Positions 2,497 to 62,868 of a stretch of DNA of 64,000 nt are shown here, in pieces. This DNA comes from an uncultured Bacillales bacterium (GTDB taxonomy: Bacteria; Bacillota_I; Bacilli_A; RF39; UBA660): the NCBI GenBank assembly GCA_947564265.1, contig CANOBK010000003.1, forward strand, positions 24,331 through 88,330, read 5' to 3'. Under the pieces are notes generated by a model that worked only from the letters and a program-made list of their open reading frames with translations, was not told the DNA's origin and made no database searches. How positions within the stretch are numbered: the first letter of the stretch is position 1; every line of letters begins with the position of its first letter. The position numbers and the translations under genes are program-made.

Positions 2497-3327
2497 TTAT
2501 AGTTGCTTTAACAATCTCTTTAAATCGGATTGTATTTTTTCATAGTTGTCTGTTATGGTCTCTTCTGTCGTTATTTTTTCTCCAGAGTCTGGCGAAATTC
2601 TTTCTACTTTTCGGGTAACTTTCTCTCCAATTTTTGCATTGATTTCTCTACTAGAATCGACGATTTGATATCTAGAAATGTCTCCCTTTTGAAACTGAAT
2701 GTATGCGATTAATTCTCCATTTATATAAATACCAGCGAATCTTACAAACTGCCTATTTCCAACTAAGTTTAAGAGTTCTTCTAAGTTTACTGTTTTCATT
2801 TCCTGTAAAGGAGCATAAATTTTCTCTATCAAAGTTGGTATAATTTTGGAAGAACTAAAAGATAATCTATATTTTTTTTCATTTTCTTGAATTGTCAATG
2901 CTTCAAAACCATCGTCGTTATCCTCAAATGTAAGAATCCTATGTTCTGATAATTGACTATTGATTTGAATTAATCTGGGCTCTCTTTTATAACCTTTACT
3001 ACTAAAAAAATCATACACATAGGATAAATTACTATTTTTTCGTCGCATGCTAAGGTAATAGTTTTGGCTATATCTGCTTTTATTCTGTGGAGAAGATATC
3101 CTGTAGTTATAGAATTTGAAACTTGTATCATCTAGATCTTTTACTTCATAGATGGAATCATAATAGTCATTATATTCTTCTCCTATAATCCTAATATCTT
3201 CCTTTGGTTCAAATTTTCCTAATTTTCTCAGTAATTTTTCTAATAGTTTTAATCTATCTTTTCCTAATTTTTTTTCATAATAGTAATAATCTAGTTCTTT
3301 TTCTTGATCCTTTGGAAAAATAATCAT
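2497..3327 (-). CDS. hypothetical protein (276 aa)
   Basis: Long ORF. The Tyr/Asp/Glu-rich sequence has no recognised domain. Confidence 0.7.
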   Translation of the reverse strand: MIIFPKDQEKELDYYYYEKKLGKDRLKLLEKLLRKLGKFEPKEDIRIIGEEYNDYYDSIYEVKDLDDTSFKFYNYRISSPQNKSRYSQNYYLSMRRKNSNLSYVYDFFSSKGYKREPRLIQINSQLSEHRILTFEDNDDGFEALTIQENEKKYRLSFSSSKIIPTLIEKIYAPLQEMKTVNLEELLNLVGNRQFVRFAGIYINGELIAYIQFQKGDISRYQIVDSSREINAKIGEKVTRKVERISPDSGEKITTEETITDNYEKIQSDLKRLLKQL

Positions 3328-11695: not shown

Positions 11696-11986
11696 TTAAT
11701 CTTCTACTCTTACTACGATATGACGAATGATGTTTTCATTAATTCGAGATATACGCTCAAATTCTTTTGTTGTTTCTAAATTCTCAGTTTCGATTATGAA
11801 TAGGAAATAATACCCAGTCTTATACTTGTTCATTTCGTATGCTAGGTCTCTTTGCCCCATTTCTTTTGCTTCAAGAATTTTTCCACCATTAGAAGTAACA
11901 ACCTCTTTCATACTGTCTGCTACAGCTTTGATTGCAGTCTCTTCTAAATCAGGCTTCACGATAAACATTAATTCATATTTTCTCAT
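11696..11986 (-). CDS. rpsF: 30S ribosomal protein S6
   Basis: 96 aa, MRKYELMFIVKPDLEE.., in the rpsF-ssb-rpsR gene order. Confidence 0.95.
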   Translation of the reverse strand: MRKYELMFIVKPDLEETAIKAVADSMKEVVTSNGGKILEAKEMGQRDLAYEMNKYKTGYYFLFIIETENLETTKEFERISRINENIIRHIVVRVED

Positions 11987-12050
11987 TGTTTACACCTCCT
12001 TTTGGACATAAGGCCAATTTCTTGGCAAGGAGTATTAAATACTCGTTAGT

Positions 12051-12079
12051 ACTATACCAAAAAAAAACGAGAATGTAAA
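12051..12079 (-). promoter_or_regulatory. sigmaA-type promoter of rpsF-ssb-rpsR
   Basis: On the - strand: TTTACA (12074-12079), 17-nt spacer, TGg-TATAGT (12051-12059). The ~45-nt 5' UTR holds two hairpins (12013-12026 and 12030-12044) before the AAAGGAGGTG RBS. Confidence 0.55.
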
Positions 12080-12129
12080 TGTTTTTCTCATTTTTTCTCA
12101 ATTTATTCCGTTAAAATATTGTTGATTAT

Positions 12130-12786
12130 TTAATTTTTTTTAAGTTCTAGCTTTTTAACAAGTCCCATAGATTCTGGTAAATAATGATAACAATTATATT
12201 GATTTATTTTTGGCACAAAATCAATTTGATTACTGTCCTGTAGAATTAATTCTTGTTGGTTTTTATTATAAACAGCATCAATCCGACTTTGATTTGTTAG
12301 ATAAAATTGATGATCACCACGTAAAGTTGGTCCCTGCGTAACAATCGTAATTGGTACATAAAATTTATCGAAAGGGCTTCTAATTTGGATCAGTATCCGA
12401 TTGATATCTAATAAATCTGATTGAGATTGAGAGCCACTTTTTAAATACTGAAAACAGTTATTTGGATTTAATCCTTTCTTTTTGGCATATTGATAGGTAT
12501 TTTCTAATCTATGCTTTATGGTTTCTTCTTCAACTGCTTCTGGCAATTGTTCTAATAATTCTGTAAATTCATCTGTTGCTTCCATCCAGCACTCTTCTAA
12601 CCGATACCTATCAAAATCAAATGGTTTCGAATTTTCTATCATTCCTTTGATAGAAAAAGGATCATATTTCATTGGACTGTTTTTTTTCTTAGATTCTTTT
12701 ATTTTTTCTTGATAAAAATGAGCTACTGTTACTTCTGAATTTATTGTAAAGTCAGAGACATATCCTGTTCTATAAATATATGCCAT
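12130..12786 (-). CDS. hypothetical protein (218 aa)
   Basis: Long ORF directly downstream of the paralogue array. No recognised domain. Confidence 0.7.
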   Translation of the reverse strand: MAYIYRTGYVSDFTINSEVTVAHFYQEKIKESKKKNSPMKYDPFSIKGMIENSKPFDFDRYRLEECWMEATDEFTELLEQLPEAVEEETIKHRLENTYQYAKKKGLNPNNCFQYLKSGSQSQSDLLDINRILIQIRSPFDKFYVPITIVTQGPTLRGDHQFYLTNQSRIDAVYNKNQQELILQDSNQIDFVPKINQYNCYHYLPESMGLVKKLELKKN

Positions 12787-12847
12787 GGTTACTCCCCCCT
12801 CTTTTTTTTCAGAGTATTATAGCCATTTTTTTTTAATATGTCAATTC

Positions 12848-13432
12848 CTACTGATATTTTTTTACTAATTCATTATTTCTTTCAATTAAAGGATTTTTAT
12901 CTTTTTGTAGATCAGTATCCCTAATTTGTTTGATACGACGATTCAGTTCCATACGAACATCTACAGATTGTTCACATTCTTTATACATTTTTAATTGTTT
13001 TCCATACTCTAAGGCCCACTCCCTTACCTTTTTCATGGATTCTATATTTTTTTCTTGCTCTAGCCATTCTATAATTTGATTATCTATAATACGTTTACCA
13101 GAGTATTCGAAATTTCTTGTACAGTTGGGGTCTTCTTTCTTCTCAGTCATCGAAACATCCCATTGTCTCGTTTTAACTCCTATACATACAAATCTCACTG
13201 GATCTGTCATCTCAATAAATTTTTTATGACTAAAAATGATTGGAATTTCCGTTCCATAAAGTCGATATCCATCTCTTTTGTATTCGTAAGGTTCAATCAA
13301 TATTTCGGAACTCACTTCTTTTCTTCCGACTCCAACCCAATAAGGATTAATCCACCTGTAACTAACTACTTCTATGGCTGGTAATAATATTTTATTTCTT
13401 TTTACGATAAACGCCTCTAATTGACTTTCCAT
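12848..13432 (-). CDS. hypothetical protein, paralogue C of a three-member tandem family
   Basis: 194 aa. Shares LEAFIVKR.K.LLP, LYGTEIPIIF, C.GV..RQW, WLE.E.NIESMK.VREWA..YG and the C-terminal NNELV..YQ with ORFs 13480-14058 and 15034-15630. Confidence 0.8.
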   Translation of the reverse strand: MESQLEAFIVKRNKILLPAIEVVSYRWINPYWVGVGRKEVSSEILIEPYEYKRDGYRLYGTEIPIIFSHKKFIEMTDPVRFVCIGVKTRQWDVSMTEKKEDPNCTRNFEYSGKRIIDNQIIEWLEQEKNIESMKKVREWALEYGKQLKMYKECEQSVDVRMELNRRIKQIRDTDLQKDKNPLIERNNELVKKYQ

Positions 13433-13479
13433 TTACCAAAACACCCCTACCTTAAAAAACTGATATTTGGTTATTTTTA

Positions 13480-14058
13480 TTACTGATATCTAGCAACTAA
13501 TTCGTTATTTCTATTTACCATTTCTTTAATTTTTTGCGTCTGTCTTTCTGCTTCAGCCTGACGATGATATCTCCGACTTCGTACAGCTTCTACTTCTCGC
13601 TGGTGTATAGCTTCTTGTACTTTTTTACACTCTTCACCATATTGAATTGCCCACTCTCTGACCCTTTTCATAGACTCAATATTTTGTTCATTTTCTAGCC
13701 ATGCAATTATGTCTTCGTCTGTGATATACTTTCCTTTATAATGAAATTCTCCATCTGGGTGACTTCGCTTCATAGAACTAGAAACTTCCCATTGCCTTGC
13801 TTCGACTCCTATACAAGTTTTCATATTTGGGTTTGTCATTTCAGACCATCGCGGATAACAAAAGATAATAGGAATCTCTGTACCATATAGACAGTATCCG
13901 CTTGCAGTTTCCTCTTTTGCTTCAATTAATACTTCTTTGTTCACAGTTCTTTTAGATGAACACCAAGCGGTACAATCCACTTGTCCTCTATCTGTTATTT
14001 TTGGCAATAACACTTTTCTTCTTTTTACTATAAATGCTTCTAATGTATTTTCTGTCAT
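13480..14058 (-). CDS. hypothetical protein, paralogue B
   Basis: 192 aa with a strong AAGGAGGAATTCAA-ATG initiation region identical to paralogue A. Nt 13626-13747 are ~93% identical to 15189-15310. Confidence 0.8.
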   Translation of the reverse strand: MTENTLEAFIVKRRKVLLPKITDRGQVDCTAWCSSKRTVNKEVLIEAKEETASGYCLYGTEIPIIFCYPRWSEMTNPNMKTCIGVEARQWEVSSSMKRSHPDGEFHYKGKYITDEDIIAWLENEQNIESMKRVREWAIQYGEECKKVQEAIHQREVEAVRSRRYHRQAEAERQTQKIKEMVNRNNELVARYQ

Positions 14059-14173
14059 TTGAATTCCTCCTTAAGTTGCTTTTTATTCTAACATAAAAAA
14101 AGAAAAAAGCAATATAAATTACTTTAATCTCTCTATCGTTTTAGATAAACTTTATTTTTCTTTTTATAAATTC

Positions 14174-14243
14174 CAGCAATTCTTTACACCCTTCACCATA
14201 TTGAATTGCCACTCTTTGACCCTTTTCATAGATTCCATATTAT
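14174..14243 (-). pseudogene. orphan fragment of a fourth paralogue (central conserved block only)
   Basis: ~70 nt alignable to 15177-15248 and 13626-13685 (the region encoding ..NIESMKRV.EW....). It has a 1-nt deletion and several substitutions and no start or stop context. It abuts the stop codon of the S51 peptidase gene. Confidence 0.7.
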
Positions 14244-14244
14244 T

Positions 14245-14904
14245 TTATACTTCAAACCATTCTCCTTCACTAATCACTTTAATATTTTCACCATCTATAA
14301 AAACAGCACTATTATCATCCATAACATATAATTTTCTACCATCAGTTTCTTTTAAACTTTTACTTGCGATTATTAAATTTTCTTTTCTTATTTTTGGAAA
14401 CCATTTACTATTAAGATGAGGTATAAATTGAAAATCTACTAGTCCTAAACCATCTATTGGAAAATCTTTTATGTTTTCATCAAATAAATCTTGACATGAA
14501 TTACAAATAGTTGGACATAAAACACAACTTCCAGCACTTGCCCCAATCCAAATACGAGTTTCTAATAATTCTTTTAAATGTTCTTCTAATCCGGAAGTTT
14601 TTATACTTTTTCTTAACCACTGCGCATTACCTCCTTCAAAGAAAAAAACATCAGCCCATTCAAATCTTGGTAAAAGATTTTCTATCCCAATTCCATTAAT
14701 ATCGCATACATCTATTTTAAAACCTAACTTTTTAAAACTTTCCATATCCTCTATCAGCCAATCGTTCATTTCTCCACCATCATAGTTGGATGCTGTTGTA
14801 CAAAACAACATTTTTAGATTTTTAAAATCTTTTCCTATCATATTTTTTAGTTCTTTTTCCATACTCTTGTTTAAGATTCCACCAGAAGTTAAAACTAATT
14901 TCAT
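14245..14904 (-). CDS. peptidase S51 (dipeptidase E-like) family protein
   Basis: 219 aa. MKLVLTSGG.., nucleophile elbow IGASAGS, ..FIPHLN.. His. Confidence 0.75.
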   Translation of the reverse strand: MKLVLTSGGILNKSMEKELKNMIGKDFKNLKMLFCTTASNYDGGEMNDWLIEDMESFKKLGFKIDVCDINGIGIENLLPRFEWADVFFFEGGNAQWLRKSIKTSGLEEHLKELLETRIWIGASAGSCVLCPTICNSCQDLFDENIKDFPIDGLGLVDFQFIPHLNSKWFPKIRKENLIIASKSLKETDGRKLYVMDDNSAVFIDGENIKVISEGEWFEV

Positions 14905-15033
14905 AAACTAACTCTCCTAATTCTCTAATTCAATATCAAAAAATTTCTATCGTTTTTGATTGAACTTTATCCATCATTTATAAGACTTTTTCTACAACAA
15001 TCACATTTTGATTTTGTTTGGTTTCTTGGATGT

Positions 15034-15630
15034 TTATTGATATCTTGAGACTAATTCATCTCTTCTAGCTACCATTTTCTTTATTTTTTCAGCATTTTCT
15101 TCATTGTCTAAGTACTCTGAATACTGAGCAGAAGCATCTCTTATTCTTTGTTCTTTTTTTCTCTGATTAATAACTTCTAGCAATTCTTTACACTCTTCAC
15201 CATATTGAATTGCCCACTCTCTGACCCTTTTCATCGATTCAATATTTTGTTCATTTTCTAGCCATGCAATTACGTCTTCATCTGTAATAAATTTCCCATT
15301 ATAATGAAATGGTCCATTTAGTTGATTTATTTTCATAAATTTTGCAATTTCCACTTGCTTGGTTCTAACACCTAGGCAAGTTTCCATTTTAGGATCAGTT
15401 TTCTCAAAAGTACTAGGATAAGAGAATATGATTGGGATTTCTGTACCATATAAATTGTATCCATTTACAGTTTCTTCTTTGGCTTCAATTAGTATCTCTT
15501 TACGAACAGTATTTCTATCAGTAGAACAGCACCAAAATGTATTGTTAGAATTAGACTCTCGATTTTTTAATCCAGGTAATAATACTTGCTTTCTTTTTAC
15601 TACAAATGCTCCTAATGTATTTGCTTTCAT
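15034..15630 (-). CDS. hypothetical protein, paralogue A
   Basis: Start set at MKANTLGAFVVKRKQ.. (ATG 15628-15630), preceded by AAGGAGGAATTCAA. The ORF-track extension to 15717 would run through the BI-1 terminator and stop codon. Confidence 0.8.
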   Translation of the reverse strand: MKANTLGAFVVKRKQVLLPGLKNRESNSNNTFWCCSTDRNTVRKEILIEAKEETVNGYNLYGTEIPIIFSYPSTFEKTDPKMETCLGVRTKQVEIAKFMKINQLNGPFHYNGKFITDEDVIAWLENEQNIESMKRVREWAIQYGEECKELLEVINQRKKEQRIRDASAQYSEYLDNEENAEKIKKMVARRDELVSRYQ

Positions 15631-15670
15631 TTGAATTCCTCCTTTAAGTAATTTAATTTTATCATAAGCA

Positions 15671-15698
15671 AAAGAAAAAAGTAAGATTCTTCTTACTT
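15671..15698 (-). terminator. rho-independent terminator after BI-1 family gene
   Basis: Stem AAGTAAG (15679-15685) / CTTACTT (15692-15698), followed by a T-run on the - strand. It overlaps the stop codon by 1 nt. Confidence 0.5.
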
Positions 15699-16339
15699 TA
15701 ATCGTCGTTTTGACCAAATAGTCTTAATAAATCATAGATTATATTAATAAAGTCTAGGTATAATTGGAAAGCCCCATAGATTGCTAGATTATCTTCTTCG
15801 ATGGAACCCTCTAGTCGCTTGATACTTTGAATATCATAAGCGATATATCCCAAGAATACTAAAATACTGATACATGTTACTACTAAATCAAAGGCTTCGT
15901 TCTGCATAAAGATATTGATTACAGAGCAAATTACGACTCCAAGCAACATCATTAGTAGAAACGTTCCTATTTTTGTTAAATCTAGTTTGGTGAAATATCC
16001 AAGAAGTGCAAATAGTAGGAATAAAATCGATGCAATTAAGAATACAAGCATGATAGATTCTATTTTATAGACAATGAATATTGCAGAAAAACTTAAACCA
16101 CTTAAGAAAGAATAGATTAAGTAACAAGTTTTGGCAGTGATAGGACTCATTTTGTGAATTCTTGCACTTAAGAAAACAGCAACTGCTAATTCCAAGATAA
16201 TTAAAAATATGTAACCATTATTTACAAAGATAAATTCTAATGCACTTTGATTGGTTTTTGTATAAATTCCTGTTACAAATGTAACTAAAAGGCCTACAAA
16301 TAGCCATAAAAATACTTTTGAATAAATTTTATTTTTCAT
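15698..16339 (-). CDS. Bax inhibitor-1/YccA family membrane protein
   Basis: 213 aa with ~7 TM segments. MKNKIYSKVFLWLFVGLLVTF.. and C-terminal ..AIYGAFQLYLDFINI.. are typical of the BI-1 family. Confidence 0.8.
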   Translation of the reverse strand: MKNKIYSKVFLWLFVGLLVTFVTGIYTKTNQSALEFIFVNNGYIFLIILELAVAVFLSARIHKMSPITAKTCYLIYSFLSGLSFSAIFIVYKIESIMLVFLIASILFLLFALLGYFTKLDLTKIGTFLLMMLLGVVICSVINIFMQNEAFDLVVTCISILVFLGYIAYDIQSIKRLEGSIEEDNLAIYGAFQLYLDFINIIYDLLRLFGQNDD

Positions 16340-16356
16340 TTTATCACCCTTCTTTA

Positions 16357-17064
16357 TTATATTCTTTTTGGTTGTTTCCCATCCGTATCTGCCATTTCTG
16401 CCCGATTTGATTTGTCTTTTAATCTTGCTTGTTCCTTTTCGTATTCCTCTAGATGTAAATACTCAAATTGTGAGCCAAAAAATTGAAGGATCTCCTTTGC
16501 TTCATCTAGTGGCATTCTACAAATCTCGTTTAGCGTAATGCACTCCAGAACCTTTGGATAATAAGTTATCGCTGACGTAGAATATTTTCCATTTGTAAGA
16601 CGTCCTTTATTGTATGATAAATAAGTTTCATAGTCATTGATTGCTGTTTTTAAACGATATAAATCGGTATTGACGTTTACTGGTATATATTGATTAATTC
16701 TTCTTTCGCACTTTTCTTTTTCTGTTGCTGGTTCTTCTGGATGTTTTAAATCCCAAATACCTTCTACCTCTCCTTCTAGTAATTGATTAATAAGAGAAAC
16801 TAGTTTTGGATCTTTATACTCGGTATAAGACCATTTATATTCTTTAAAATTTTCTCCCTCATAAATCGGTTCTCGATTCATAAATTCGAATCGAATTCTT
16901 GTTTTTGGATCACTTTCTGGTTGGTCCATTCCTCTAGAGGTAGCTAATTGAAGTATCTCAGCACAATTGCTTTGAATTATTTTTTTTAATTGTTCTAGTG
17001 ATTCTTTATCTATCGAGACTTCATACTTTATAATACAATCGTCTTCTATTTCATAATAAACCAT
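16357..17064 (-). CDS. hypothetical protein (235 aa)
   Basis: Long acidic ORF between BI-1 and ychF. No recognised domain. Confidence 0.7.
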   Translation of the reverse strand: MVYYEIEDDCIIKYEVSIDKESLEQLKKIIQSNCAEILQLATSRGMDQPESDPKTRIRFEFMNREPIYEGENFKEYKWSYTEYKDPKLVSLINQLLEGEVEGIWDLKHPEEPATEKEKCERRINQYIPVNVNTDLYRLKTAINDYETYLSYNKGRLTNGKYSTSAITYYPKVLECITLNEICRMPLDEAKEILQFFGSQFEYLHLEEYEKEQARLKDKSNRAEMADTDGKQPKRI

Positions 17065-28149: not shown

Positions 28150-28770
28150 TCATTTTTTTAATAAAACTACAGGTTTTTCTTTTGTAATTTGATAAGCAAT
28201 CTTAATATCCCTTTGTTCTTCTATTTTTCCTATTATATAACTGAAATTAGTACATGATCTTATATGCCTAATAGCTTGATCCATAGAATCATTAAATTTT
28301 TTTAGGAGTTTTTTTTGTTTGTAATTTGAAAGCTCAACAAATTGTTTCATCATGATTTCATCAATTTCTTCTATGGATGCATTAATGATTCTCTCCCTAC
28401 TTTTCGATAAACAACCATCATTATAGGTATATTGCTTTTCTATAATTTTCCCTTCTTTATCAAATTTTGAATGAAGCATAATATGTTGTTTCTTTTCTAC
28501 ATCAAGGCGTGTTGTTATTTCTTCTATTAAAAAATCCTGTTCATCAAAAATCATAATAAATAATACTGGGTAAGGTTCAAATGGAGCACGAAAGTGAATT
28601 CTAATAATTTGATGATTGATTTTTACATCAATTTTTGTATCCCTAAACACTATACTTTCCCATTTGGATAAAATGATGGGACTTTGACTTTCTAAATCCT
28701 TTAAATATGTTAATACTGGTTCTATTTCGATTAATTCTTTATTTCTCTTTTTTAAAGATTCTATAATCAT
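28150..28770 (-). CDS. hypothetical protein (206 aa) between mnmE and mnmG
   Basis: Long ORF starting 9 nt after the mnmE stop. No recognised domain. Confidence 0.7.
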   Translation of the reverse strand: MIIESLKKRNKELIEIEPVLTYLKDLESQSPIILSKWESIVFRDTKIDVKINHQIIRIHFRAPFEPYPVLFIMIFDEQDFLIEEITTRLDVEKKQHIMLHSKFDKEGKIIEKQYTYNDGCLSKSRERIINASIEEIDEIMMKQFVELSNYKQKKLLKKFNDSMDQAIRHIRSCTNFSYIIGKIEEQRDIKIAYQITKEKPVVLLKK

Positions 28771-42430: not shown

Positions 42431-42597
42431 TAGGTTCCTATATTTTAAAAATGTGAGTGTTATTAAGAAATTCTTATAGTATGTATAAGTTTTAAGTTAT
42501 TTTCACTACAAATTGACTAATTACTGTATAGTTTTAAATTTTTATAGTACCTATGAATTTATATGAAATTATGGTAAAATTATCTCGGTGGTTTAAT

Positions 42598-42945
42598 ATG
42601 AATTTATATGACAAATATTTTTTTTGTACTTTATTAACTATTATAATAACAAGAACATTTGTGTATTTGTTTAATAGACCTAGTCCAACCATAAAAGGTT
42701 TTAGGACGCATCACTGGATGTTTGGATTATTGTTATCAATCATACTTTTTTGTATATCAAGTTTTTATGTAAATATATATTTATTATCTATTAGTATGGG
42801 AATATTTTTAGATGAAATAGGATTTATTATAGTTCGAGGAAAAACTCATGAAGATAATTATAGTCCAAAATCTTTTATGATATTGATGTTTTTTATATTG
42901 CTTTTATTTATATTTAGAAAAAATATTGTTAATTTTTACTTATAA
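42598..42945 (+). CDS. hypothetical small membrane protein (115 aa)
   Basis: 3-4 predicted TM helices. Start set at the second ATGAATTTATATGA repeat (42598), which has a GGTGG RBS. Coding status is uncertain in this very AT-rich island. Confidence 0.4.
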   Translation: MNLYDKYFFCTLLTIIITRTFVYLFNRPSPTIKGFRTHHWMFGLLLSIILFCISSFYVNIYLLSISMGIFLDEIGFIIVRGKTHEDNYSPKSFMILMFFILLLFIFRKNIVNFYL

Positions 42946-54922: not shown

Positions 54923-55384
54923 ATGGTAGAATTACAAGTGCGACTTAAAAATCCCTCAATTATTTTAATGCCTATTACAGAAGAAGAAAAAGAATGTCTA
55001 GAGAAAAGGAGATTTGTTGGGAATGAAGCTATTTATGTTTTATATAAAATTCCTAATTGTGAAAGAGTATTTATTGGGATGATGGCTGCTTCTACTACTA
55101 CTTATTTTTCAGGAATTGCGAATGTTTGGAATTTACAATACGCAACGGAGAAGGCATACTTTTATAATGGTGGTTCTGAGCTTCAAAGAACGGCAGAGGA
55201 AATTACAGATCGACCAGTTTACCAAATTGAACCAACTGACGACCGTTTTGTAGATAATTATGCTATATTAAATGGAACTACAGAAAACGGATTTATGATT
55301 CCGTTAGATGATGTATTGGATGGAAAATTTCAAATTAAAGAGAAAGAATTACCAATTCAAAAATCTATAGATGTAAATTCATAA
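54923..55384 (+). CDS. hypothetical protein (153 aa)
   Basis: ORF with an AAAGGAGGGGA RBS. No recognised domain. Confidence 0.65.
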   Translation: MVELQVRLKNPSIILMPITEEEKECLEKRRFVGNEAIYVLYKIPNCERVFIGMMAASTTTYFSGIANVWNLQYATEKAYFYNGGSELQRTAEEITDRPVYQIEPTDDRFVDNYAILNGTTENGFMIPLDDVLDGKFQIKEKELPIQKSIDVNS

Positions 55385-56535: not shown

Positions 56536-56768
56536 CAAGTAAATGGAAAATAAATTATGAAAAAATACTCAAAGAATTAAGTGATAGCTATCTTACTACT
56601 AATAATGTCTGATTATCCAATTGTTTAGTTTTATCCTTTGATTGATCTATATTTTTTTAGTAATTTGGTAGTATTAAAATATAGATTCTTTTTTCTTTGT
56701 TTTTTAGTCTATATTTGACTAATTAGCCATAAACTGTTATGATTAATTTAATAAAAAGGGTGATAAAA

Positions 56769-57407
56769 ATGGAATCAGATATCACAAATCTGTTTAAGGA
56801 AAAGAATAAATCAATTCTACTAGCTACACTCAAATATGATATTGAGAAAAATATAACATCTGTACTAGAGACGATGGTGAATATATTTAATAATGAATTT
56901 GATACTGCGATTACAAAAGTAACTTCTATTTATGAGGATAGTGGTAATACTGATTCAAAAAAATATATTACAGATACTATTAATCGAATGAAATTAGATA
57001 GCTATAAAGAAGTAGAGAAATTGTTAAATGATAAAAAGGAAAGTTTAGAAACTGTTCTAGAAGAGTTGGATTTTACCGATGAAAGATTTCAAGAATATTA
57101 TGATGCTGTATCGGAGACAACTCAAATCTTAAAAAATTCTTTAAAAAAATATTGTATTGAAGAAGTACAGAAAGATGCCATTGCATCATTCAAAGAAAAT
57201 ATTGAAAATACAGTAGAAGAAGACAAACAAAGTCTTGCACTATCTAGAGTAGAAGATTATTTTACAATTCGTTTATATGGAAAACTGGAAAGTAAACTTT
57301 ATATGGAATTAGAGTTAAGAGATAACAATTTATTAAATAAAGCAAAAGAAGGTTATATAAGATATCATCAAATCGTAGAAAAAACAGAAGAAAGAGAAGA
57401 AGTATAA
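56769..57407 (+). CDS. hypothetical coiled-coil protein (212 aa)
   Basis: Start set at MESDITNLF (AGGGTGA RBS). Glu/Lys-rich and helical, with no recognised domain. Confidence 0.65.
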   Translation: MESDITNLFKEKNKSILLATLKYDIEKNITSVLETMVNIFNNEFDTAITKVTSIYEDSGNTDSKKYITDTINRMKLDSYKEVEKLLNDKKESLETVLEELDFTDERFQEYYDAVSETTQILKNSLKKYCIEEVQKDAIASFKENIENTVEEDKQSLALSRVEDYFTIRLYGKLESKLYMELELRDNNLLNKAKEGYIRYHQIVEKTEEREEV

Positions 57408-59350: not shown

Positions 59351-59818
59351 ATGGAAAAGTATTATGTAATTCCAGTTATGGAGTCAGATATATTGATTCC
59401 ATGCGGAAGAGAAAAAAATATTTCAATTCGAGAATATGTAGAAAAGTATTATCCAAGATTAGCGCAATTAGAAAGAGAGAGATTGTCTATTATTTATAGT
59501 GGGGATTATAATGCACCATTTACTGGTGAGCAAAAAAGACAATTAGAAGAGAATGCTCTTAAAAAAAGAAGGATAGCAGAAGAATTAGGAATTCCATTAC
59601 GCATTTTAGCAATGGATGATGGAAAAGAAACCTATGAAGTTGGGACTCATTCAAGAATTCTTAGTAATAGCCAAGATTTTCTTGATTTTAGAGAACAACC
59701 TAGAAATATATTTTTAACTTACTATAATGGAGATTATATACAGAGAGTAAAAAAATTTATGAGAAGAAAAGATTTTATCGTTTTACAAGGTGGTTCCCAA
59801 AAAATAATAAGAAGGTGA
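59351..59818 (+). CDS. hypothetical protein (155 aa), first gene after the T-box leader
   Basis: ORF with a GGGGGT RBS. No recognised domain. Confidence 0.65.
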   Translation: MEKYYVIPVMESDILIPCGREKNISIREYVEKYYPRLAQLERERLSIIYSGDYNAPFTGEQKRQLEENALKKRRIAEELGIPLRILAMDDGKETYEVGTHSRILSNSQDFLDFREQPRNIFLTYYNGDYIQRVKKFMRRKDFIVLQGGSQKIIRR

Positions 59819-60310: not shown

Positions 60311-60919
60311 ATGAAAAAAAGAATCATAGTAAATCAGAATGATACTATAGAAATTAAAATTACTCCAGGATATGCAGGTCAAAATTTATATATTTTAAGA
60401 TCCTATCGGACTGGAGAAGGAATCAAAAATATTAGATTTAGTCTTTGGGATGATATTTCTTTCAGCGCTTATACAAAAGAAGAAACTGATACTTTAGAAT
60501 TTACATTTGATATCAATGATCCTCTTTATTTTTGTTTTAATCGATTCTTAGGTAGTGATAAAGAAATCTATATCGAGGATGATGATACCCATTATTATGG
60601 AAAGAAATATCTATTAATCAGTAAAGAAGGTTACACTATTCAAATAATTTTTAAGAATCTCTTATCAGAGGATGAATATGATCCAACAGATTATCTTGCA
60701 GGAGAATTTAGAGTATTTATCAAAAATATTGGACCAGATCCTAGAAGTAAAATAGAGGATTATCATTTCAAGTGTAGAATTATTGATTTTCTTAGAGATT
60801 GTGAGGAAAATTTATTGGAAGAGTACCATCAAATGACAATAGATGAGTATGTAGAAATATTAAATTATGATCAAGAATGTCAAAAGAACCATCAAAAAAT
60901 AATAAGGAGGAATGGATGA
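60311..60919 (+). CDS. hypothetical protein (202 aa)
   Basis: ORF whose TGA (60917-60919) overlaps the metG ATG (60916-60918). No recognised domain. Confidence 0.65.
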   Translation: MKKRIIVNQNDTIEIKITPGYAGQNLYILRSYRTGEGIKNIRFSLWDDISFSAYTKEETDTLEFTFDINDPLYFCFNRFLGSDKEIYIEDDDTHYYGKKYLLISKEGYTIQIIFKNLLSEDEYDPTDYLAGEFRVFIKNIGPDPRSKIEDYHFKCRIIDFLRDCEENLLEEYHQMTIDEYVEILNYDQECQKNHQKIIRRNG

Positions 60920-62469: not shown

Positions 62470-62868
62470 ATGGAAAAAAGTACAAATCCAAGTATGGTAG
62501 GAATTGATGAAATCGGAGATGTTTATCAAGATCGTATTCTTACGATGGAAGAGGTGGATTGTGACCTAGAAATTAGGAATCCATTTCGTAGGATTAGTGA
62601 TACGATTGAGAAAATAAAAGAAAAATACATTTTAATTGTAGTAAAAGAAATCATGTTGAAAGAAATGAAAAAATCTTATTATGAAAATGCAGAAAATGTG
62701 AAGGAGTTCATCGATATCGATACTCATTTTGTAACAAGTGAAGATGGGGCTGCCGGTTACCATCATATTGAAAATCTGTGTATTTGGCGGAATGGTTTTT
62801 ATAATTTCAATTGTTTTAATTTAACAACTCCAGGGTTACGATTTGGAAATCAAAAAAAGATGAGATAG
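62470..62868 (+). CDS. hypothetical protein (132 aa)
   Basis: ORF between metG and tatD with a weak RBS. No recognised domain. Confidence 0.55.
   Translation: MEKSTNPSMVGIDEIGDVYQDRILTMEEVDCDLEIRNPFRRISDTIEKIKEKYILIVVKEIMLKEMKKSYYENAENVKEFIDIDTHFVTSEDGAAGYHHIENLCIWRNGFYNFNCFNLTTPGLRFGNQKKMR

Follow-up and report, generated by a model that had tools for sequence, protein, structure and literature searches.

In the organisation of its genes, the locus described here most closely resembles homogeneous polyimmunity loci, for example tandem arrays of SUKH, Imm6, Imm11, Imm28, Imm33, Imm36 or Imm41 genes (PMC3482391). Such loci are tandem, co-oriented and toxin-less and vary between relatives; a recombinase lies next to them in several cases and is not obligatory (PMC3482391). 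We analysed a stretch of 64,000 nucleotides (nt) from an uncultured Bacillales bacterium (GCA_947564265.1, contig CANOBK010000003.1, positions 24,331 to 88,330; hereafter the window), in which three paralogous genes, A, B and C, form an array between the gene for a BI-1/YccA-type membrane protein and rpsF. As in polyimmunity loci, small, cytoplasmic and probably non-enzymatic paralogues stand in tandem at one locus per genome. Unlike in those loci, the family matches none of the described immunity families, no XerC/D-type recombinase is found nearby, and the locus is fixed between housekeeping genes, with orthologous types long retained.

Gut Bacteroidales offer a further comparison. Their orphan immunity clusters reside on mobile elements with recombinases and assemble heterogeneous known families directed against type VI secretion system effectors. 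Our array shares with these clusters a gut bacterium as its host and a toxin-less set of candidate protective genes that varies between relatives, but it is homogeneous and chromosomal, lacks mobility genes and belongs to a Gram-positive-type lineage. A restricted tandem array with partial gene conversion is a known phenomenon; the family itself is undescribed and structurally unplaced. The array genes and the segments discussed first are the following (lengths in amino acids, aa).

15034..15630, minus strand: paralogue A, A-type, open reading frame (ORF) of 198 aa
13480..14058, minus strand: paralogue B, B-type, ORF of 192 aa
12848..13432, minus strand: paralogue C, C-type, the most conservative type, ORF of 194 aa
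15189..15310, minus strand: A side of the A/B patch, encoding FHYNGK...WLENEQNIESMKRVREWAIQYGEEC
13626..13747, minus strand: B side of the A/B patch, differing from the A side at 9 of 122 nt
15091..15186, minus strand: codons 149-180 of A, hypervariable between strains, the charged middle of the C-terminal helix

A first-pass annotation of the window, made from its letters alone, had recognised the three ORFs as paralogues, and all three are present at these positions on the minus strand. Protein identity is 60% between A and B and 41% between A and C, with 72 invariant columns. The shared motifs listed in that annotation hold for B and C; A carries them only in nearly the same form (LGAFVVKR, C.GV..KQ, RRDELVSRYQ). 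The ATG of A at 15630 is preceded by AAAGGAGGAATTCAAATG and has a ribosome-binding site, AAAGGAGG, 7 nt on its 5' side; the 14 nt 5' of this ATG (15631-15644) equal the 14 nt 5' of the ATG of B (14059-14072). A longer mechanical ORF, reaching to a TTG at 15717 inside the BI-1 gene, is spurious, and the correct start is the ATG at 15630. Orthologues of A in relatives are G002_1 (70% identity) and G008_0 (67%); the closest sequence to B in G008 is G008_2 (65%), and the orthologue of C is G008_3 (76%).

The proteins had been described as impossible to place in any known domain, and our searches agree: Pfam, NCBIfam, PHROGs and PADLOC gave no match above noise, the best library scores being 12-16 bits against curated cut-offs of 25-60 (Pfam, NCBIfam, PHROG). 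A, B, C and the orphan genes beside them all lacked a PADLOC-DB v2 match at E<=1, and no family member matched an Imm family above noise. Pfam DUF5069 (PF16798) gives a weak local match in 8 of 29 members, covering about 40 residues at the base of the predicted C-terminal helix (residues ~115-160; best E=0.01, 13-16 bits vs a cut-off of 27 bits). The likeness is confined to this helix base, all matches lie far below the cut-off, and membership of DUF5069, itself without known function, is not supported. We rejected the matches to DUF5069, Imm5_like, Cortexillin, YchF_C and small terminase alike as sub-threshold helix similarities. How telling is the lack of a domain in such a genome? Nine of ten further window ORFs that were scanned also have no Pfam match above the family cut-off; since unannotatable ORFs are this common, the absence of a domain is less remarkable for A, B and C. 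The nine (1080-1727, 2497-3327, 28150-28770, 54923-55384, 56739-57407, 59351-59818, 60311-60919, 62470-62868 and 42553-42945) encode 130-276 aa and are paralogous neither to each other nor to the array family; the ORF at 1080-1727 has a sub-threshold match to Cel124_C alone (E=0.004, 17.6 bits vs a cut-off of 27).

An AlphaFold2 model of B, built from an alignment of 29 sequences, is confident (predicted local distance difference test, pLDDT, 89.7; predicted template modelling score, pTM, 0.76). It shows eight short strands and two short helices within residues 7-121 and a single helix at 124-191. The predicted fold comprises an N-terminal domain rich in beta structure, about 115 residues long, and one C-terminal helix of some 68 residues. 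This helix is amphipathic with a period of 3.6, not a heptad. Its base is hydrophobic and conserved and in the model presumably packs on the sheet, its middle is charged and poorly conserved, and its tip is a conserved amphipathic segment (..ELV.+YQ). With few exceptions, the invariant residues are hydrophobic or aromatic (W32, Y55, L57, Y58, G59, T60, P63, F66, G84, V85, F105, Y107, W120, L121, N126, S129, M130, Y140), the invariant columns hold no catalytic-type residue pattern, and the family proteins have neither a signal peptide nor a membrane segment. The proteins are small, cytoplasmic and probably non-enzymatic, with a conserved scaffold and variable surface segments. A fold search with the model, a check that the first-pass annotation had proposed, found no structural neighbour among solved structures, and the search of BFVD gave no match. 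AlphaFold2 applied to the N-terminal domain alone (13 sequences) reached a pLDDT of only 44, which is unusable for a fold search. The idea of a degenerate peptide deformylase, suggested by the fmt neighbourhood of the members in G061 and L062, was rejected: there is no HExxH, no EGCLS and no match to a deformylase fold.

How far does the family extend? A profile search of 5.8e9 proteins returned 32 clusters and an exhaustive HMMER scan of 1.84e9 representatives nine matches; a broader profile aimed at remote relatives added no new sequences. Across the taxonomic family to which the genus belongs, 400 genomes from 214 genera contain no member. Within the genus it occurs in 5 of 29 species, all of one subclade, and the carriers are, G026 excepted, the species whose BI-1 is closest to that of this genome (73-94% identity); the BI-1 gene itself is present in 28 of the 29 genomes. 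Other lineages hold single divergent members in unrelated contexts: nrdG-TG177-family-fmt, in which the family gene ends only 4 nt before fmt (G061, L062), yidD-family-rnc, and further members among small orphan genes on short contigs. The search for relatives and genomic neighbours that had been recommended therefore yields a narrow range, a few uncultured gut Bacilli, and no match to a housekeeping domain.

Within the genus, the family always sits at the BI-1/rpsF junction. In this genome (G000) the order of transcription from BI-1 to rpsF is A, a peptidase S51 gene, the remnant of a fourth copy (psi), B, C and the orphan gene orf218, all on the minus strand. Besides the paralogues, the region comprises these features.

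15698..16339, minus strand: gene for a BI-1/YccA-type membrane protein, the conserved border of the insertion site on its upstream side (Pfam PF01027, 2.3e-44)
14245..14904, minus strand: peptidase S51 gene (Pfam PF03575, 1.3e-23)
~14163..14244, minus strand: remnant (psi), A-type, frameshifted, with the core patch alone left
12816..12844, minus strand: perfect sigma-70 consensus TTGACA-17-TATAAT directly 3' of the C stop codon and before orf218, identified by consensus match alone
12130..12786, minus strand: orf218, an orphan gene unrelated to the family, with no Pfam match
11696..11986, minus strand: rpsF, the conserved border of the insertion site on its downstream side

The carriers hold one to four copies (zero to four across species), and the mix of paralogue types varies. 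The arrangement A-S51-psi-B-C-orf218 is found in G000 and in L068-L070, which represent two other samples and a 98.9%-identical strain (L068). G008 has o197-A-D-B-C-orf218; L073 and L074, strains that share an identical B-type protein, have A-D-B with or without o197; L080 has B-C, L081-L084 have two-copy arrays, and G002, G003 and G011 have single copies. The gene o197 encodes a 197-aa orphan protein between BI-1 and the first family copy; its presence or absence distinguishes the strains L073 and L074, and it occurs also in G008. BI-1 abuts rpsF directly in G012, G025, G001, G028 and G009, as it does in most species of the genus. Yet other genomes carry unrelated cargo at the same place. G026 has an acyltransferase and a hybrid histidine kinase, and G016 and G020 have a 679-aa UvrD-type helicase (with generic GajB-like and with NERD+UvrD-like similarity) and a small gene, which in G020 encodes a zinc-ribbon/DUF4234 protein (L045 7279-10666, L046 5087-7771 and L049 7189-9851 are the coordinates of these junctions). 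Given this varied cargo across relatives, the BI-1/rpsF junction is a recurrent insertion site with heterogeneous contents and no recombinase.

A maximum-likelihood tree of the family members contains well-supported A-, C- and D-type clades, each of which spans species (support for the C-type clade, 100/99). B-type sequences fall into two separate, more weakly joined groups: B itself pairs with P0013 (support 86/81), and G008_2 stands in a separate clade with P0007, P0008 and P0011. Since the type clades span species, the phylogeny indicates that types A, B and C, and D in relatives, arose before the species split and were then differentially lost. Individual copies are dispensable and are kept as a variable set.

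A and B had been called mosaic at the nucleotide level, and this description stands up. The two sides of the patch differ at exactly the nine positions reported, with 46 consecutive nt identical, and the mosaic reaches synonymous sites: synonymous divergence (dS) is 0.36 in the patch vs 1.1-1.3 in the flanks. At residues identical between A and B, the same codon is used in 29 of 35 cases (83%) in the patch vs 38 of 71 (54%) in the flanks (Fisher p=0.005), and the two genes share a run of 32 concordant polymorphic sites (permutation p<1e-4). The patch corresponds to the most conserved core of the protein, in which the long helix begins, and its ratio of nonsynonymous to synonymous divergence (dN/dS) is 0.06-0.19. 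Two causes had been offered, gene conversion and a constraint on the DNA or RNA itself. In orthologue pairs, synonymous sites are no better conserved within the patch than in its flanks (p=0.37-1; patch dS 0.5-1.16), and no Rfam family matches the patch; with no synonymous dip between orthologues and no Rfam match, a constraint on DNA or RNA is unlikely, and of the two causes the synonymous-site tests favour gene conversion. Could the near-identical patch nonetheless be a functional DNA or RNA element, perhaps a promoter within the genes, a structured RNA or a site of recombination? No other nucleotide stretch of the family is as conserved as the patch, and 77-100 nt of it are the sole part kept in the pseudogene remnant; but it encodes the invariant protein core, and the equal synonymous codon identity of patch and flanks in orthologues speaks against such an element. 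We consider this explanation largely refuted and its chances very slim.

When did the exchange take place? The similarity of A and B in the patch is not significantly above that of orthologues, so the exchange probably dates from around the time of the species split, or else was recurrent but rare. Copies 0 and 2 of G008 show a similar trend in the patch (p=0.07), and G008_1 and G008_2 share another tract (run test p=0.0003). The array resembles gene-converting tandem families in that the core tract of A and B is younger than its flanks at synonymous sites; it differs in that the tract is short (~120 nt) and seemingly old, homogenisation being occasional and not ongoing.

Outside the patch, the genes diversify, as had also been proposed. 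Between orthologues, dN/dS is 0.18 for C, 0.32 for B and 0.34-0.42 for A, vs 0.03-0.08 for BI-1, ychF, ssb and rpsF at similar dS; these values indicate functional genes whose proteins evolve 5-10 times faster than those of their neighbours. In the A and B types, the first 40 codons have a ratio of about 1. Comparison with the 98.9%-identical strain L068 reveals 68 differences across ~6.5 kb, of which 24 lie in A, 17 of these in its mid-helix codons 149-180 (dN 0.23, dS 0.10, ratio 2.4), a pattern that could be local diversification or the import of a divergent allele. A further 15 of the 68 fall in orf235 (16357-17064), between ychF and BI-1. This ORF evolves extremely fast: between species with 94-95% identity in the genes on either side, it retains only 23-43%; elsewhere it is swapped for unrelated ORFs of 145-179 aa, or absent. 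Might A, B and C be decaying or non-functional ORFs, kept by chance in AT-rich DNA? One copy is indeed a pseudogene, and the genome is full of unannotatable ORFs; against this, the reading frames are intact in many species, overall dN/dS is well below 1, 26 columns are invariant across 29 sequences, and the structure model is confident. Decay is refuted by these data, and we assign it next to no probability.

The peptidase gene next to the paralogues had been taken as a clue to a conflict system, and this proved misleading. G000 and its near-identical strains alone have the S51 gene within the array, where it stands between A and B. At this locus it is absent in G002, G003, G008, G011 and all metagenomic arrays from other species, and an S51 relative exists in only 3 of the 29 genus genomes. 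The closest, at another locus (G002 contig C31, 12474-13129; L086, L088), is 74% identical, is split by in-frame stops and is apparently a pseudogene; G003 holds a relative with 34% identity. The S51 region has lower G+C and a stronger GC skew than its surroundings. Rare, off-locus elsewhere and deviant in composition, S51 is an accessory gene whose insertion into the array did away with most of one A-type copy; because its adjacency is not conserved across genomes, we rejected it as a functional partner.

The removed copy is still visible. A search of the whole genome with the family profile found A, B and C, one weak fourth match, and nothing more. This remnant of ~80 nt lies directly 3' of the S51 stop codon, matches the profile with E=1.3e-4, contains three stops and a 1-nt deletion, and is 91% identical to A 15170-15246 (E=1e-20). 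It reads NMESMKRVKEW/QFNMVKGVKNCWNL followed by a stop, and belongs to repeat families D3 and D4; its stretch ..CKELLEF.. is A-type. The last codons of S51 (..EWFEV and stop) may derive from ..AWLENEQ.. of the destroyed copy (25 of 36 nt agree by eye), and the insertion junction may lie within the WLE motif (14139-14260). Between 14145 and 14167, 23 nt match the beginning of BI-1 at its 5' end (16322-16344) with 91% identity (E=0.01).

At the other end of the array, orf218 is 62% identical to its G008 counterpart and follows the C-type copy in both G000 and G008; L081 has a 215-aa gene in the same position, after its C-type copy. Its kinship with the family is not supported by hhalign, and orf218, o197 of G008 and o180 of G003 were rejected as hidden family members, no relationship being found. 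No terminator-like hairpin was detected in 11900-16500, array included, and none of A, B and C is preceded by a strong consensus promoter.

What could such proteins do? In the reading we prefer, the paralogues would be non-enzymatic binding modules, a common scaffold whose differing surface loops and stalk make specificity variants; inside the cytoplasm they would neutralise protein toxins or effectors that vary, and the array would represent a homogeneous locus of the polyimmunity type, chromosomal and without toxin genes, whose members form a new immunity family. The organisation of the locus is consistent with this. A, B, C and the remnant are tandem paralogues on the same strand (all minus), and the locus holds no toxin gene or cassette, its only non-family genes being S51, orf218, BI-1 and rpsF. 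Copy number and type differ between relatives; the two closest strains share one arrangement. By analogy with polyimmunity loci, we regard immunity-like neutralisers of variable toxins or effectors as a possible function, to be held tentatively. The more specific proposal, in which the new fold is a new immunity or neutraliser family and the array a fixed chromosomal library between BI-1 and rpsF, each type blocking a different incoming toxin while gene conversion holds the scaffold constant and loops and stalk diversify, we would call unlikely.

RHS toxins are carried by this organism and its relatives. The genome has an RHS/YD-repeat toxin gene of its own on contig C1 (~219600-230300, outside the window), 32% identical over 2061 aa to the RHS protein of G061; 3' of it, the contig carries an orphan fragment of an RHS C-terminus together with two genes homologous to one in the G061 island. 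The distant family member P0028, in G061 of another genus, stands at the edge of an RHS-plus-immunity island. This polymorphic-toxin island, on contig C1 of G061 (L060 789-15350), lies between nrdG and the family gene. It encodes a 2181-aa RHS protein with ricin-type lectin domains, followed by ORFs of 327, 99 and 338 aa with a common N-terminus (GSWGVKLYQDDVACDV). Its other contents are a protein with DUF5071, a 193-aa ORF that may be an orphan toxin tip, its partner of 164 aa, and a DUF4279 gene (FdL-Imm5). Several repeated, immunity-like ORFs thus precede the family gene there.

Does this proximity make the family an immunity family? Several observations weigh against it. A related contig, L062, has the same order nrdG-TG177-family-fmt without any island, so the G061 adjacency reflects an insertion beside a pre-existing family gene, and we rejected RHS adjacency as proof of immunity because it is secondary; in G061, moreover, a gene on the opposite strand separates the family gene from the RHS island. 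A phyletic link between the family and RHS was likewise rejected, as RHS occurs in genus members with and without the family, and the RHS locus of this genome lies on another contig than the array. Among about a dozen distinct contexts, only that of G061 is near an RHS island, and in none does a toxin gene directly adjoin a family member or lie immediately 5' of it; housekeeping genes make up the other surroundings (yidD/rnc; the 4-nt gap to fmt). No recombinase, integrase or mobile-element gene flanks the array, and none is found among the genes from dnaB through the AbgT-like transporter. The absence of PADLOC and Imm-family matches above noise counts in the same direction, and the retention of types over a dS of ~0.6-1, at an overall ratio that stays below 1, would suit a stable role in the cell just as well as conflict.

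Such a role can be formulated: the proteins may be lineage-specific scaffolds or regulators that form homo- or hetero-oligomers through the helix base and tip and serve a routine task in translation, at the envelope or in association with division. The paralogues would then be subfunctionalised, with gene conversion keeping the common interface compatible. We hold this proposal to be plausible but short of likely, with about the same weight as the immunity-like reading. Orthologous types are kept across species under purifying selection, the neighbours are housekeeping genes (rpsF and yidD/rnc, besides the fmt context in two genomes), the array is free of toxin, phage and mobile genes, and conversion is confined to the structural core; with no terminator inside the array and no strong promoter before A, B and C, co-transcription with BI-1 is possible. 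Yet absence from 24 of the 29 species of the genus and from the 400 family-level genomes marks the family as dispensable, its composition differs in nearly every species at zero to four copies, one copy was lost to an insertion and not replaced, and both the rate of evolution, 5-10 times that of the neighbours, and the strain-level variation of the stalk sit poorly with a routine task. A component of anti-phage defence, or a domesticated phage or mobile-element protein in a defence-type hotspot, seems quite improbable to us. The helicase and small gene in the G016 and G020 gap, the patchy distribution, the three unrelated contexts in different lineages and the fast evolution would suit it; the family, however, has no PADLOC or PHROG match, no BFVD fold match, no nuclease, NTPase or other effector motif and no conserved partner gene, and the other cargo of the site is metabolic or signalling in kind (the G026 acyltransferase and hybrid kinase).

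Whatever the function, the locus is a clean example of paralogue birth and differential loss, of partial gene conversion and of a helical stalk that varies between strains. Its protein has a confident AlphaFold model without a structural neighbour among solved structures, and the locus flags the BI-1/rpsF junction as a recurrent insertion site in the genus. Were the immunity-like reading true, the family would be a structurally new one among the proteins of interbacterial conflict, and uncultured gut Bacilli with small genomes would keep toxin-less protective arrays at a fixed site, without the machinery of mobile elements.

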